Origin: an uncultured archaeon
Lineage (GTDB): Archaea > Altiarchaeota > Altiarchaeia > IMC4 > QMZM01
Length of the DNA stretch: 33,544 nucleotides
Direction: 5' to 3'
Assembly: GCA_964549685.1 (NCBI GenBank)
Contig: CAZJVE010000013.1
Span: 1-33,544 of the forward strand
Shown here piece after piece: positions 25,348 through 30,557 of this stretch. The notes beneath the pieces are model-generated. The model saw only the letters and a program-made list of their open reading frames with translations, did not search any database and was not told the DNA's origin. Position 1 is the first letter of the stretch. The number at the start of each line of letters is the position of its first letter. The translations under genes were made by a program, and so were the position numbers.

Positions 25348-25728
25348 ATGTATTCAATGTTGCTTATAGGTATTGGCGGTTTCCTGGGTGCGATTCTCAG
25401 ATATCTGGTCTCGGGATGGATACAGAATATGAATTCCGGTTTCCCGGTCGGAACACTGGGTGTCAATTTCATCGGGAGTTTCTTTATAAGTTTGGTTATG
25501 TATCTCTCAGAGTACAGAGGTCTGTTCAGTGATGAAACAAGAATATTTCTGACAATAGGATTGCTCGGTGCATTCACAACAATGTCGACATTCAGCTACG
25601 AATCGTTCAGGTTATTAGAGCAAAGGGAGATATCCTTATTAGCGATAAATGTAATCGGAACAATTATGCTAACATTGCTTGCAGTATATTTGGGAAGGGC
25701 CGTTGTCCTAAACCTAGAGGGAATCTAA
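25348..25728 (+). CDS. crcB: Fluoride channel CrcB/Fluc
   Basis: GGFLGAILRY, GTLGVNFIGSF and GLLGAFTTMSTFSYE; four TM helices. Confidence 0.95.
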   Translation: MYSMLLIGIGGFLGAILRYLVSGWIQNMNSGFPVGTLGVNFIGSFFISLVMYLSEYRGLFSDETRIFLTIGLLGAFTTMSTFSYESFRLLEQREISLLAINVIGTIMLTLLAVYLGRAVVLNLEGI

Positions 25729-25729
25729 A

Positions 25730-26071
25730 ATGGAAAAAGAATCTGAGGCTGTTTTGTTAAGGATTTTCATCGGCGAGTCAGACACGTATGATGGAAAACC
25801 ACTATACAAATATCTTGTGGAAACGTTCAGGAAAGAAGGATTGGCGGGTGCTACTGTTTTAAGGGGCATGGAGGGTTTCGGAAAAACGAGCGGGATCCAT
25901 ACGACATCGATACTCAGGCTCTCGACAGACCTTCCGATAGTGATAGAGGTCGTGGATAAAAAGGAGAAGATAGACGGAATTAAACCACGACTGGAGGGGA
26001 TTATAAAGGGGGGCCTCATAACCGAAGAGAAGGTCGGGATAATTCTTTACGGCGGCGGCGATAAGGAATAG
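25730..26071 (+). CDS. DUF190 PII-like protein (commonly paired with crcB)
   Basis: LLRIFIGESD, GLAGATVLRGMEGFG, LRLSTDLPIVIEVVD and GLITEEKV. Confidence 0.92.
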   Translation: MEKESEAVLLRIFIGESDTYDGKPLYKYLVETFRKEGLAGATVLRGMEGFGKTSGIHTTSILRLSTDLPIVIEVVDKKEKIDGIKPRLEGIIKGGLITEEKVGIILYGGGDKE

Positions 26072-26114
26072 CTCCGTGAGGCCATTTATATTACTCCAAA
26101 CCAATTATAATCCT

Positions 26115-26204
26115 ATGCCCTGTGGAAGAAAGCGTAAACTCCAGAAGATGCGCAAGCACAAGCAGAAGAAGCGCAAGAGGAAGATGCGATATAAGAGGAA
26201 GTAG
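26115..26204 (+). CDS. 29-aa highly basic protein resembling ribosomal protein bS22/mS38 (AURKAIP1/COX24-like)
   Basis: Manual translation MPCGRKRKLQKMRKHKQKKRKRKMRYKRK*; KM-x-KHK-x-KK-R motif; TTTATA box at 26085-26090, ~25-30 nt upstream. Absent from the ORF track. Confidence 0.72.
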   Translation: MPCGRKRKLQKMRKHKQKKRKRKMRYKRK

Positions 26205-26218
26205 TTCTGGGTCTGATT

Positions 26219-27718
26219 CTATTTTACAACATCATAAGCAAGCCTCACAATCCTGTTGAAGTCCTCGTCCTTTGGTTTGTACTTTGCGAATTTTACGAGG
26301 TTGCAGAGGTTGAGACACTCCTTTGTAGTGCCTAGCTTTTTATGCTTCTCCTTCTTCAGCAGCTGTACGACTTCATAGTCCGTTAATTCCTCTTTTTGCT
26401 TAAGCGCGTATCTGAAGTATAATCTGACGGCTTCCGAGACCTTGGTGTATGCCTCCCGCTTCTCTCCCCGGGAATACATGCCCTTGGCTTCGTTTATCAT
26501 TCTCAGTGCAAGGTTCCTAAAGTCGGCGGGCTTCTTCTCCTTTGGGGGTTCAGGAACCGGTTCCTTCCCCCTTATTTTCTTCACGATGAAGTAGAGGATT
26601 ACTAACAGAGCCAAGAGAGCGGGAAGCCATGCGGGGTCGAGCTTGTCGCTCTCCTTTTTCTCCCTCGTAATCTCTATCTCGGTTATGTTCCCATCGGTTT
26701 TAATCTCCCCGGTTATGTTTGCATTGCGGTTTTCAGAATCGGAATACTGATAGTTGAATTTGCTGAGGTTGTTCTGAATCGGAGAAAGATTTCCTTCCTC
26801 GAGAGAGTAGCCCTCCTCCTGCAATATCTCCTGCATCCGTTGGAATTGCGGATTATTCTCAAGCTTTTCCTGCAGCTCCTTCAGCTCCTTGCTCGTGTGC
26901 TTCTCGAGTTCTTTAATCTCGCCGTCCTCCATCCTTCCGCTAATCTCTGCAGTTTCATCGCCCTTTGAATACTCATAGTTGAATTCACCGGTGCCATTAG
27001 ATTCGGGGTTTATTTCTTTATTCTGGAGCTCATAGCCCTGTTCCTGTAATTCATTCTGTAAATTCTGAAAATCCTCATTGCTCTCTATCATCTCCTGCAT
27101 CTCCTGTTCCATCTCCTTTTGTTGCTGCATCTGCTGCTCGAGCTGCTGCTTGAGGGAGTTCATGTCCTGGTTCTGCTGCTGCATCTCGTTGACTCTCTGC
27201 TGGAGGTCCTGTTGCTGCTGTTGCTGTTGTTGTTGCTGCTGCTGCTGGCTGTAGGTAGTGCTCCTCCTGTTTACGCCGTCGCACTGATAGACCGTAGTGA
27301 TGCCAGACTGTTGCAGATTCTGGTCTGGCTTCCCCTTGACCTCGATCTCCAGGTCATTAGAAACAATTTCCTCTTCCTGTCCCGTGAGGGGGTTGGTATA
27401 GGTTATCTTCGCAGGGTCAATGCTGTAGTTCCCTGGGGAATATGCGACTATCGGTTCGTACTCCAGAGCGATTAGGGGGTCGGAGGGAAGGCTCCTGTCA
27501 AGGCACTCTATATCCAGACCATTGTCGGCGAAGACGTTCCTGTCCACTATCTGTATATCAATCTCCTGGTTGAATGGGTTGGTGAATTCAAGACTCATTA
27601 TCACCTCATCGCCGACTGAGATGTCGGCTGGTTCTACTGTCTTCCTTACCTCTAGCTGCTCTCCGGCTGCTATGCCCAGGAGTGCTGCAACCAGCAGAAT
27701 AACTAAACTTTTTCTCAT
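26219..27718 (-). CDS. BatD-like exported protein with polyQ linker, internal duplication, TM helix and cytoplasmic helical tail
   Basis: Signal peptide, Ig-like N-domain (PGNYSIDPAKITY...SNDLEIEV), Q13 tract, two ~64-aa repeats, TM AWLPALLALLVILYFIV, and tail LTDYEV...CNLVKFAKY. Confidence 0.75.
   Translation of the reverse strand: MRKSLVILLVAALLGIAAGEQLEVRKTVEPADISVGDEVIMSLEFTNPFNQEIDIQIVDRNVFADNGLDIECLDRSLPSDPLIALEYEPIVAYSPGNYSIDPAKITYTNPLTGQEEEIVSNDLEIEVKGKPDQNLQQSGITTVYQCDGVNRRSTTYSQQQQQQQQQQQQQDLQQRVNEMQQQNQDMNSLKQQLEQQMQQQKEMEQEMQEMIESNEDFQNLQNELQEQGYELQNKEINPESNGTGEFNYEYSKGDETAEISGRMEDGEIKELEKHTSKELKELQEKLENNPQFQRMQEILQEEGYSLEEGNLSPIQNNLSKFNYQYSDSENRNANITGEIKTDGNITEIEITREKKESDKLDPAWLPALLALLVILYFIVKKIRGKEPVPEPPKEKKPADFRNLALRMINEAKGMYSRGEKREAYTKVSEAVRLYFRYALKQKEELTDYEVVQLLKKEKHKKLGTTKECLNLCNLVKFAKYKPKDEDFNRIVRLAYDVVK
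27209..27247 (-). repeat. (CAG/CAA)13 trinucleotide repeat encoding polyglutamine
   Basis: Thirteen consecutive Gln codons, mixed CAG and CAA. Confidence 0.95.
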
Positions 27719-28665
27719 TGCAAAATCCTCTTCCCAAAGTATCTCAGATAAAAGCCAATCAACATGAATAGCGCTGCAAGAACAACGAAGTAGTCCTTTA
27801 CCGATGTGAATTCCTCCTCTCTCTTTATGGTCTCGGGGATGTTCTTGTAGATTTCCTGCAGTGTGTTCTCATCAACTGCTTTAAAGTACTGGCCCTCCGT
27901 CTGCTGGGCTATTCTCCGGAGGGTTTCCTCGTCCAGGTTTGCGTACTGCGGCCTTCCAAAGAAGTCATAGCCCAGGACTACCGGCTCCTCAGAGCCTATC
28001 CCTATCGTATAGACCTGAATCTCGTTCGTCTTTGCGAACTCTATCGATTCTATGGGGGATATCACTCCCGCATTATTCTCTCCATCACTAAGGAGGATGA
28101 CGATTCTCTTCTTGTTCGGGATGGAGGTGGCCATGTCTATCGCGAGTGAAAGACCGTCCCCTATCGCGGTCTGCCCGTTAGGTGGCCTTATCGTCTTCAG
28201 CTTCTCGATTGCCTTATCCTTGAAGGGAGTGAGATACGATGATGTGGTGGCTCCGTCGGAGAATATGACTATTCCAACATTGTCCTTGATGTCAAGGCTC
28301 TCTATCAAAACCCCGGCGCTGGATTTAGCGGCTTCAAGCCTGTTTGGCTTGTAATCCGATGCCTGCATGCTCCCGGAAACATCGATTGCAAGGACGACGT
28401 TGACTCCCTCCTTTGTCTGCTCCAATGGCAGATGGGGATCAGAAAGGGCAATAATCAATGAGGTAATTGCAAGTAGACTAATTAAGAGGAGAATTCTCTC
28501 CCGGTTTACCGCCTTCTTTCCCCCGGCCCTCTTTATGAGATCCAGGTTGCTGAATTTTATCGCTACCTTCCTGCCCCTGCGCATGGCCCAGAGGTAGAGA
28601 TAGAGTATTACTGGTATTAACAGCAGAACAATCAGCCACTCAGGCTCCATGAATCTCAGCTCCAT
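27715..28665 (-). CDS. BatA-like von Willebrand factor A membrane protein
   Basis: N-terminal F..PEWL..LLLIP segment, MIDAS DVSGSM, PNRLEAAK, TAIGDGL, LLSDGENN, IGIG, LDEETLRRIA and a C-terminal TM. TGATG overlap with DUF58. Confidence 0.92.
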   Translation of the reverse strand: MELRFMEPEWLIVLLLIPVILYLYLWAMRRGRKVAIKFSNLDLIKRAGGKKAVNRERILLLISLLAITSLIIALSDPHLPLEQTKEGVNVVLAIDVSGSMQASDYKPNRLEAAKSSAGVLIESLDIKDNVGIVIFSDGATTSSYLTPFKDKAIEKLKTIRPPNGQTAIGDGLSLAIDMATSIPNKKRIVILLSDGENNAGVISPIESIEFAKTNEIQVYTIGIGSEEPVVLGYDFFGRPQYANLDEETLRRIAQQTEGQYFKAVDENTLQEIYKNIPETIKREEEFTSVKDYFVVLAALFMLIGFYLRYFGKRILQ

Positions 28666-29567
28666 CACCTTATCCTCCTCCTTCTTATCCCGAAGAATTT
28701 AATCATTGCTTTGGTCCAGTCATCATCGGTCCTTATATCAATAAGGTCGATGCCGTTGGAGCGGTGGAATCGCATTGTTTTCTCCCTCTGCTCATTGGCA
28801 AGCTCCAGAAAATTCCGCCTGAATTCCTCATCCGATGTATCGACCAGGATTTGTTCTCCTGTCTCTCCGTCTTCCAAGGATATGAGGCCCACGTCGGGAA
28901 TCTCCTCCTCCCTCAAATCCCTGATATTAACGGAGATGAGGTCGTGCTTTTTCCCGAGGATTCTCATCGACTTTGCATAGTTCTCCACGGGCTCGCCAAA
29001 GTCGGAGATGAAGAACACTATCGCCTTCTTTCTCGTAATCCTGCTGATGAATTCAAGTCCCTGGTTGAGGTCCGTTGCCTTTTCCTCCGGCTCGTGGTAA
29101 ATCGTTTCCCTTATGACTCTCATGACCTGCTTCCTGCCCTTTCGGGGGGGGAGGTACTTCTCGACCCTGTCGCTGAAGAGAATCAGACCGACCCGGTCAT
29201 TATTTCTTAGGGCGGAGAAAGCGATGCTTGCAATCAGCTCCGTTGCAGTATCCTTCTTCAGGTTGCTTTGGGTCCCAAAATCCAGGGAGCCAGAAATGTC
29301 GAAAGCAATCAGGATGGTGAGGTCCCTCTCCTCGATGAATTCCTTCACGTAGGGATGGCCGAATCTGGCCGTTACGTTCCAGTCTATTGTCCTTATGTCA
29401 TCTCCTGGTTGATATTCTCTCACCTCTGAGAATTCTATGCCTCTGCCCTTGAAGGTGCTCTTGTATGCTCCCTGGAATATAGAGTCGACAAACCTCTTGG
29501 TTCTTAGTTCGACCTGCCTCACGTTGCTCAGAATCTCCCTTATCCTTTCGCGCTCAAGCTGCTCCAT
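28665..29567 (-). CDS. DUF58 domain protein (copy 2)
   Basis: GAYKSTFKGRGIEFSEVREYQPGDDIRTIDWNVTAR, DISGS and FISDF. Confidence 0.93.
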   Translation of the reverse strand: MEQLERERIREILSNVRQVELRTKRFVDSIFQGAYKSTFKGRGIEFSEVREYQPGDDIRTIDWNVTARFGHPYVKEFIEERDLTILIAFDISGSLDFGTQSNLKKDTATELIASIAFSALRNNDRVGLILFSDRVEKYLPPRKGRKQVMRVIRETIYHEPEEKATDLNQGLEFISRITRKKAIVFFISDFGEPVENYAKSMRILGKKHDLISVNIRDLREEEIPDVGLISLEDGETGEQILVDTSDEEFRRNFLELANEQREKTMRFHRSNGIDLIDIRTDDDWTKAMIKFFGIRRRRIR

Positions 29568-29570
29568 CTT

Positions 29571-30557
29571 TTATGGAGTCTCGGTCTCTTCGAGAATCCT
29601 CTTTATGATATCCTCAACAGTAATTTCCTCGGCCTCGGCCTCGTAGGAGAGGATTAGCCTGTGCCTCAAAACATCATATGCTATCTCCTTGATGTCGTCG
29701 GGGACAACATAGCCCCTTCCGTCCAGAAGTGCGTTGGCCTTTGCCCCATGGATGAGATAGATTGAGGCCCTGGGCGAAGCCCCGTAGTTTATCAGGTTCT
29801 CAAGGTCGGGGAATTTCTCCGATTGCTCTCTTGTTGCAAAGATTAAATCAGCGACGTAGTCCTTTATCTTGTCATCGACGTAGATTCTGTGGGTGAATTT
29901 CTGGAATTCGAGGATTTCCATCGGGTTCAGGATGGAATCGACCTTCAGCTCCTGCCCAGTCGTCATCCTGTTCATTATCTCTATCTCCTCCTTTCTTGAT
30001 GGATGTTTTACAATGACCTTGAACATGAACCGGTCGAGCTGTGCCTCCGGCAATGGATAAGTGCCTTCCGTCTCAATCGGATTTTGCGTTGCGAGAACCA
30101 GGAACGGCTTCGGCAGCTTCAGCGTATCCCCGGATATCGAGACCTGCCTCTCCTGCATGGCCTCCAGCAAGGCAGACTGGACCTTTGGCGGAGCCCTGTT
30201 TATCTCATCTGCGAGAATGAAATTCGCGAAGATGGGGCCCTCTTTTGTTGTAAAGGTTGCGGTCTTCTGATTGTAGATTTTTGTGCCGGTAATGTCAGCA
30301 GGTAGCAGGTCGGGCGTGAATTGAATCCTCCTGAAGCTGCAGTGCGTTATGTCGGCAAGGGTATGGACCATCAGCGTCTTTGCAAGGCCAGGAACGCCTT
30401 CGAGAAGTATGTGGGCATTGCACAGCAGACCGATAAGGAGCCGTTTTACGGCGTAATCCTGGCCCACTATAATCTTGCGAATCTCCTTCTCAAGAGAATC
30501 TATCGTCTTGCCCAGTTCCTTTGCCTCGTTAGATAGTTTCTCTATCTCTTTGTCCAT
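29571..30557 (-). CDS. moxR: MoxR family AAA+ ATPase (copy 2)
   Basis: GVPGLAKT, RIQFTPDLLPAD, LADEINRAPPKVQSALLEAMQE, GTYPLPEAQLDRF and GASPR. Confidence 0.95.
   Translation of the reverse strand: MDKEIEKLSNEAKELGKTIDSLEKEIRKIIVGQDYAVKRLLIGLLCNAHILLEGVPGLAKTLMVHTLADITHCSFRRIQFTPDLLPADITGTKIYNQKTATFTTKEGPIFANFILADEINRAPPKVQSALLEAMQERQVSISGDTLKLPKPFLVLATQNPIETEGTYPLPEAQLDRFMFKVIVKHPSRKEEIEIMNRMTTGQELKVDSILNPMEILEFQKFTHRIYVDDKIKDYVADLIFATREQSEKFPDLENLINYGASPRASIYLIHGAKANALLDGRGYVVPDDIKEIAYDVLRHRLILSYEAEAEEITVEDIIKRILEETETP

Follow-up and report, generated by a model that had tools for sequence, protein, structure and literature searches.

We analyzed a window of 33,544 nucleotides, that is, the whole stretch of DNA presented here, and found within it a gene for a small basic peptide, whose position and surroundings are listed in Table 1. 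The contig is archaeal as judged from its content, because fibrillarin, Trm1, and a TATA element are present. Upstream of the peptide gene, the plus strand encodes Trm1, a 126-codon ORF, fibrillarin, CrcB, and DUF190, with DapA lying on the minus strand between the 126-codon ORF and fibrillarin. A first-pass annotation, which was made from the letters alone, had picked out this ORF, and it was confirmed at the same place with the start codon and length given in the table.

Table 1. Features in and around the peptide locus (positions in the window).
Feature	Position	Strand	Remarks
bS22-type peptide gene	26115..26204	+	29 aa; ATG at 26115, TAG at 26202-26204; product MPCGRKRKLQKMRKHKQKKRKRKMRYKRK
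TATA box of the peptide gene's putative own promoter	26085..26092	+	TTTATATT; read from sequence
Intergenic spacer, DUF190 gene to peptide gene	26072..26114	+	43 nt; contains the putative promoter
DUF190 gene	25730-26071	+	stop at 26071
CrcB fluoride channel and DUF190 pair	25348-26071	+	between fibrillarin and the peptide gene
Predicted membrane protein	26219-27718	-	499 aa; Gln-rich; no Pfam family
BatA-vWA / DUF58 / MoxR cluster	27715-30557	-	downstream of the peptide gene

Archaeal TATA boxes are located approximately 26-27 nt 5′ of the transcription start. In the window, TTTATAT(T) starts 30 nt 5′ of the A of the peptide gene's ATG. The gene is probably transcribed from this TATA promoter of its own, and its mRNA is probably leaderless, because the center of the TATA box is located ~26-27 nt 5′ of that A; no Shine-Dalgarno motif was observed before the ATG in the 43-nt spacer. 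The TATA box at leaderless spacing, which had also been pointed out in the first-pass annotation, was likewise confirmed (TTTATAT, 30 nt upstream) and has counterparts in related genomes, since a TATA-like heptamer starting at −28 to −31 from the ATG was found in 15 of 20 Altiarchaeota loci. On visual inspection, TTTATA near −30 is also present in L011, L014, and L016, and L010 and L015 carry a Shine-Dalgarno-like GGAGG/AGGTGA in place of TATA.

Comparison of the neighboring genes among Altiarchaeota loci showed that no ribosomal or translation genes adjoin the peptide gene and that conservation of the neighbors stops at the genus or family level; therefore, the peptide gene stands alone. As detected by tblastn, the congeneric locus L002 has fibrillarin and the peptide without CrcB and DUF190, so that the CrcB/DUF190 pair looks like an insertion. 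The 499-aa membrane protein, which heads the BatA-vWA/DUF58/MoxR cluster, contains 12 consecutive Gln residues as well as extended Gln/Glu-rich repeats and is conserved within the genus only. An Rfam search at the peptide locus gave no family (one chance lncRNA match with an E-value of 0.25 lies well downstream), and a bacterial-type scan, which carries little weight in archaea, found no hairpin terminator. A search of sequencing runs for the locus listed no RNA run. A 42-aa frame starting with GTG at 26076 was rejected as the gene, because conservation starts at MPCG and the open frame comprises just 30-31 codons in several relatives.

It had been suggested that the gene was overlooked because of its size, and gene callers indeed miss nearly all copies. 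The exact window peptide is absent from approximately 15 billion predicted proteins. One of four Altiarchaeota variants looked up was present in this collection, under the name "hypothetical protein", and none of ten further archaeal variants was found there. An exhaustive profile search over 1.84 billion representatives returned just 15 proteins at E ≤ 0.001, most of which were over-extended ORF calls with the peptide at the end. The peptides are thus seldom called, and protein databases are therefore poor for mapping them. When the 42-aa frame from the natural GTG start was used as a query, a protein homolog search returned no candidates. Similarly, hmmscan against Pfam and NCBIfam returned nothing for the 29-aa and 42-aa forms, and NCBIfam matched none of 20 relatives' peptides.

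At the genome level, the single peptide used as a query gave a match in 39 of 41 related genomes, and an intact ORF of 28-30 aa beginning with MPCG was observed in all 20 of the relatives' loci that were fetched. Profile A2, an Altiarchaeota alignment of 15 sequences with a match threshold of E ≤ 0.01, matched 48 of 61 Altiarchaeota genomes at full length with one match each, and matched all 13 high-quality genomes (completeness ≥ 90%, contamination ≤ 5%). The misses, 13 in total, were all eight genomes of family f9, which belongs to another order, and five scattered MAGs with a completeness of 70-83%. A variant N-terminus, MGVSRKKKR, was found in five Altiarchaeota genomes of genera g19 and g23 (L251-L255). 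Among the 20 loci, third codon positions were variable in 25 of 28 cases, first positions in 12 of 28, and second positions in 10 of 28, and 1627 synonymous versus 878 non-synonymous codon differences were counted. Within the ORF, the mean pairwise nucleotide identity of the same loci was 0.79, compared with 0.32 and 0.28 for the 60-nt flanks on the two sides, which are unalignable among relatives. The ORF is a conserved gene under protein-level selection, and it behaves as a near-core gene of the phylum. The possibility, raised at the outset, that related archaea hold no homologs is contradicted by the 48 matching genomes.

We then compared the peptide with the chains of known structures, using a PDB set of 177,635 distinct chain sequences with hits listed at E ≤ 10. 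With phmmer, the window peptide matched 8FMW_V (2.8e-5), 7JIL_5 (0.021), and 9I5V_10 (0.054) and nothing else. A2 also matched these three chains and nothing else, with E-values of 4.7e-8, 2.4e-4, and 9.7e-5, respectively. Profile A4, a broader alignment of archaeal plus bacterial sequences, gave 1.4e-11, 2.7e-10, and 3.1e-9, and its remaining match at E ≤ 10 was one mS38 chain (0.26). According to the structure reports, the three bS22 chains were modeled into the density of cryo-EM maps of the Borrelia ribosome, the Flavobacterium ribosome, and related ribosomes. The PDB contains hundreds of eL41 chains as well as other basic peptides, and neither the peptide nor A2 matched any of them. No chain of the actinobacterial bS22 (33 aa, Mycobacterium/Cutibacterium) was among the PDB matches at E ≤ 10, whether the query was the peptide, A2, or A4.

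The bS22 alignments run end to end, from residue 1 to 28/29. As shown by these alignments, the peptide and the bS22 chains share an N-terminal MP-x-G-[KR]-KRK and a central HK-x-KK, positions at which 20 archaeal and bacterial sequences show no variation. With 62% Lys plus Arg over 29 aa, the peptide also falls within the size and composition of bS22, i.e., 28-33 residues, of which more than half are Lys or Arg. Because E-values are fragile for low-complexity peptides of 29 residues, the case rests on the specificity of the matches and on the full-length register. The first-pass annotation had asked whether the likeness to bS22 exceeds that of shuffled K/R-rich peptides; the shuffled peptide reached the real score against nine bacterial homologs in 0 of 5000 trials each, a test that is partly circular because the nine were fetched by query-derived patterns. 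From the end-to-end alignments, the peptide is a full-length homolog of Bacteroidota/spirochaete-type bS22, and the bS22-like reading proposed at first is borne out by PDB matches to bS22 chains only. We consider, with a probability of approximately 0.85, that the gene at positions 26115-26204 of the window belongs to the bS22 family and specifies an archaeal small-subunit pocket peptide.

The kinship proposed earlier had also included mS38 (AURKAIP1/COX24). The bS22 part of it held, and the tie to mS38 stayed below threshold, with an mS38 chain at E 0.26 and no Pfam hit. The Pfam model COX24_C (PF08213), whose gathering cut-off is 23 bits, had been named as the model to search with; it gave no hit with the window peptide at E ≤ 10 and did not flag the peptide locus in a scan of its own genome. 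Weak PF08213 matches were obtained in 12 of 20 relatives, all of which were below the cut-off (best E-value, 0.0067; 13.1 bits for the one relative whose score was given), and PF08213 was the sole recurrent Pfam match among these 20. The same genome scan gave no match in a Bacteroides control genome either, and PF08213 is thus insensitive to the bS22 subtype. Among the ESM-Atlas neighbors of a natural 30-aa variant, 22 of the 30 nearest clusters were PF08213 COX24_C, which we take as a lead only. The record of 9I5V chain 10 bears the name "AURKAIP1/COX24 domain-containing protein".

The occurrence of the bS22-type peptide in other archaea was analyzed with A4 in genome samples in which each phylum is named by the title of one record and for which positive controls were run. 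Matches were obtained in 39 of 121 genomes of the Aenigmatarchaeota phylum and 23 of 151 genomes of the "Methanosarcinales archaeon" phylum (ANME/Methanocellales). Five phyla, amounting to 564 sampled genomes, gave no credible match: Woesearchaeota (0/151), Methanocaldococcus (0/40), Micrarchaeota (0/101), Bathyarchaeota (0/151), and Thermoplasmata (1/121), where the single match lies inside a 1069-codon ORF and was taken as spurious. The search across archaeal genomes that had been recommended thus extended the bS22 type to ANME-1/Syntrophoarchaeum, Methanocellales, and Aenigmatarchaeota.

The 23 matches of the "Methanosarcinales archaeon" phylum fall into three types. The ANME-1 type reads IPCGKKRK[LIV][AQ]KMRKHKLKKRRKKMRYKK, and the Methanocellales type reads [M/V]G[IT][PSA]KK[RK]KRKK[IM][RS]KHKLKKRR[RG]KM[RK][YH]KK[RK]; the third type, MPCGRKRKRAKMRKHKQKKLRDKMRHRKK, was found in two genomes. 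Records of the Methanocellales type comprise six of Methanocellales/Methanocellaceae and one "Halobacteriota archaeon", and the loci of this type (L241-L247, L257, L258, L262, L263, L269, L270, and L273) have an N-terminus of MGI[PS]KK.... Methanocella has cultured members, and the Methanocella-related carriers found here are MAG and single-cell records only. The Aenigmatarchaeota loci are L264, L266, and L271. In L271, which comes from a contig of 1.1 Mb, the conserved N-terminal codons are shifted by one base relative to the reading frame of the remainder, which is probably due to an assembly error or a frameshift.

The first codon of the ANME-1/Syntrophoarchaeum gene is ATT, with the near-perfect Shine-Dalgarno sequence AGGTGGTGA located 5-6 nt upstream (L180-L240; e.g., L180:1498-1584:+). 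Scanning 185,579 species genomes with a pattern that itself required ATT yielded 53 ATT-started ANME-1-type loci, nearly all of them in ANME-1/Methanophagales, Syntrophoarchaeum, or generic Methanosarcinales/Halobacteria records. A stop codon is located 0-2 codons upstream of ATT in 49 of the 53 loci, and no canonical in-frame start lies upstream in 50 of them. Furthermore, all 14 profile matches of the ANME-1 type in the 151-genome sample align from position 2 only. Read from these loci, ANME-1 has conserved ATT as a non-canonical start codon, which would present a rare and clean case of its kind among archaea.

Weak start codons (ATT, GTG, GUG, TTG, and ATA) recur among the genes for pocket peptides. 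The Methanocellales type mostly starts with GTG behind GGGAGGA. For eL41, a TTG start behind GAGGTG was observed in 17 of 30 long-form loci examined, Thermoplasmata or related (including L059, L062, L070, L074, L076, L086, and L088), and an apparent ATA start in one Methanocaldococcus MAG (L132). The start of the Borrelia bS22 gene is reported as GUG. We speculate that a pocket peptide located near the P site may tune the stringency of start-codon selection together with its own translation, in a manner similar to infC. IF3 controls infC through an AUU start.

The first-pass annotation had noted that the eL41 core W-x-KKR-x-RRLKR is absent here, and the W, KKR, and RRLKR elements are indeed missing from the window peptide. 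No eL41-like motif or ORF was found in its own genome, which is 85% complete. The Pfam eL41 model (PF05162) gave no match over the cut-off in 61 Altiarchaeota genomes. This model was judged uninformative, because none of 14 control genomes passed the cut-off either, and it was replaced by our own archaeal eL41 alignment, A3, whose loci were gathered with the eL41 signature from the first-pass annotation. Against the PDB, A3 matched 30 sequences, all of which were eL41/eS32/aL41 and none bS22, and it detected eL41 in all five control genomes. A3 does not match the window peptide locus.

In the 61 Altiarchaeota genomes, A3 gave one significant match (G052; E-value, 1.8e-6) and another at E 0.45. 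The eL41 of G052 (MKRSSRRWKKK..., L176:39-137:+) was rejected as an Altiarchaeota gene. It is located on an AT-rich contig of 1.6 kb, directly 5′ of a 16S rRNA gene (L176:~375-1637:+). The contig was read as foreign, because this 16S is only 70-72% identical to those of three Altiarchaeota genomes and to the other 16S of G052, and because G052 is 6% contaminated; it probably entered the bin as contamination from a different archaeal lineage. No credible eL41 is present in Altiarchaeota as sampled by the 61 genomes. In the comparison with eL41 models that had been proposed, A3 thus separates the two types, with no eL41 at the locus or credibly in the phylum.

A3 found no eL41 in the 151-genome sample of the ANME/Methanocellales phylum, in five genomes carrying the bS22 type (including three Aenigmatarchaeota), or in five bS22-negative Aenigmatarchaeota, and none of the genomes searched holds both a bS22-type peptide and eL41. 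By A4 and A3, neither type was found in 128 of the 151 genomes of the ANME/Methanocellales sample or in any of the five bS22-negative Aenigmatarchaeota tested. In family f9 (G053-G060, 63-87% complete), the bS22 type was found in 0 of 8 genomes at E ≤ 0.01 and 0 of 5 at E ≤ 10, and eL41 in 0 of 8 by A3. Because f9 has neither type, a peptide in this pocket may be dispensable, or both probes may miss a third form. It had been proposed that this archaeon uses a bS22-type peptide instead of eL41. The absence of any genome with both agrees with this proposal; however, many genomes have neither, so that the result is one of non-co-occurrence rather than of strict replacement.

Bacterial MPCG/MPNG peptides were found in Omnitrophota, Planctomycetales, Marinimicrobia, Fermentibacteria/Aegiribacteria, and "Hydrothermus" records, with each gene located behind a Shine-Dalgarno sequence. 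An unrooted maximum-likelihood tree was built from 57 distinct peptides over 30 columns, with 42 archaeal and 15 bacterial rows; the patterns used to fetch the bacterial rows were archaeal-like, and these rows comprise no Bacteroidota, Spirochaetota, or Actinomycetota. One branch split the archaeal from the bacterial rows (support of 90/96, and 86% of bootstrap trees), and the archaeal lineages interleave on the archaeal side. The tree, which is unrooted, biased in its bacterial sample, and built on few columns, does not discriminate between a single ancient origin and a transfer with later spread. In Lomakin et al. 2023, bS22 and eL41 are argued to form one universal group. A wider reading is that bS22, eL41/eS32, and mS38 constitute a "uS22" of LUCA age, of which the archaeal bS22 types in Altiarchaeota, Aenigmatarchaeota, ANME-1/Syntrophoarchaeum, and Methanocellales would be vertical survivors, with eL41 having arisen within Archaea and the weak starts being perhaps autoregulatory; we regard this as doubtful and put it forward tentatively.

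Three other explanations of the window peptide were weighed. Since AAG/AGA-rich stretches readily yield Lys/Arg ORFs and bacterial homologs exist, purine-rich DNA might have produced the ORF by chance, or the DNA might be that of a bacterial contaminant in an archaeal bin. This is already contradicted, and its probability is practically nil: the ORF is located on a 33.5-kb contig among fibrillarin, Trm1, CrcB, and DUF190 behind an archaeal TATA box, it is conserved with synonymous variation on different contigs in the 48 of 61 genomes, and the archaeal sequences cluster apart from the sampled bacterial ones. We also consider it extremely unlikely that the peptide is a diverged ortholog of archaeal eL41/eS32 whose resemblance to bS22 arose by convergence from the same rRNA pocket. 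Both kinds are described in the literature as Lys/Arg-rich helical peptides of ~25-37 aa in the same pocket, the single universal group of Lomakin et al. 2023 would accommodate such an origin, and hhalign pairs KMRKHKLKKRRKKM with RMRWKWIKKRIRRL in a weak M-R-x-x-x-[IL]-K-K-R resemblance. However, the probability that hhalign assigned to this pairing of A2 with A3 was 1.2%, the eL41 profile finds the peptide gene in none of the 61 genomes, and the invariant eL41 core is missing. Moreover, the matches of the peptide and A2 to bS22 chains only (A4 adding the mS38 chain) cover the full length including MP-x-G-[KR]KRK, with no eL41 among them.

A further reading keeps the common ancestry with bS22 and assigns the conserved basic micropeptide a function outside the ribosome, e.g., in binding nucleic acids or chromatin, at membranes, or in regulation. 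The genomic neighborhood of the gene is not ribosomal, and extra-ribosomal activities of eL41 and bS22-like peptides are reported in the literature; this role nevertheless appears very unlikely, because solved structures show three independent bacterial homologs, equal in length and register, bound to the ribosome, the gene has a core-like distribution with one detected match per genome across the phylum, and eL41 is undetected in the lineages that carry the bS22 type.

On the preferred reading as an archaeal bS22, and by analogy with the bacterial homologs in solved ribosomes, the peptide would occupy the pocket that h44, h45, and h27 of the 16S rRNA form in the small subunit, adjoining the decoding center and the P site, and its C-terminal end would reach the large subunit. 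The same pocket would correspond to the eL41/eS32 site in other archaea and eukaryotes and the mS38 site in mitochondria. Its Lys and Arg residues would neutralize rRNA phosphates and stiffen h44/h45; thus placed, the peptide would stabilize h44/h45 and the subunit interface and may influence initiation. We infer the ribosomal location, the mechanism, and the leaderless transcript. The literature consulted includes PMC7005279, PMC12123416, 10.1101/2023.04.16.537070, PMC10085706, PMC12718117, and PMC11724365. In the bacterial structures, bS22 is located between h44 and h45, also at h2 and h27, reaches H68/H70 of the large subunit, and lies near the aminoglycoside site; in Bacteroidota, it lies between h44 and h45 and touches H70 of the large subunit.

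In the full-text literature, with subscription journals and supplements lying outside the search, we found no report of a bS22-type protein in an archaeon. The "b" of bS22 stands for presumed bacterial, and a conserved archaeal gene of this type would cross domains. The matches to bS22 chains support the archaeal peptide as a new, domain-crossing addition to the known bS22 family. The catalog of archaeal ribosomal proteins would change accordingly in its contents, by a member that is near-core in one phylum and present in parts of two others, and a ribosomal protein gene of this kind would be one that gene callers miss almost entirely. Two profiles, A4 for the bS22 type and A3 for the eL41 type, now separate the two kinds of pocket peptide. 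The bS22-type archaeal genes also give material to the proposal of a universal peptide.

Among known systems, the best match is bS22 of Borreliella burgdorferi (8FMW chain V), which has 28 aa compared with 29 aa in the archaeal peptide. It has the same MPCGRKRKL start, HK-x-KK center, and RK-x-R-x-K tail. It is reported to have been unannotated as well and to have a non-canonical GUG start, similar to the archaeal ATT and GTG versions. The B. burgdorferi protein is a bacterial one, observed in cryo-EM density. The archaeal peptide differs from it by Q-K-M-R-K at positions 10-14, most archaeal copies have L at 17 and M at 24, and the window gene has a putative TATA promoter and no Shine-Dalgarno sequence.

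The bS22 of Bacteroidota (Flavobacterium johnsoniae, 7JIL chain 5; 9I5V chain 10; Porphyromonas gingivalis) has 29-30 aa in the same register, MP-x-G-K-KRK...HKRKKR...RHKKK. In contrast to the archaeal peptides, Ser or Asn replaces Cys3, a residue also found in the bS22-type peptides of Borrelia, Omnitrophota, Planctomycetota, and Marinimicrobia, and the match is weaker than that of Borrelia (E-values of 0.02-0.05 with the single peptide). Archaeal eL41/eS32, such as that of Pyrococcus abyssi (6SW9 chain 0), is a peptide of the same kind for presumably the same pocket and shares non-ATG starts with the archaeal bS22 type; it differs in its 35-37 aa and its MRWKW-x-KKR-x-RRLKR core and was a separate sequence family by every test. 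Finally, mS38 (AURKAIP1/COX24) is a much longer protein, and all of its sequence matches to the archaeal peptide are below threshold; in mitoribosomes, its C-terminal part is reported to fill the same pocket.
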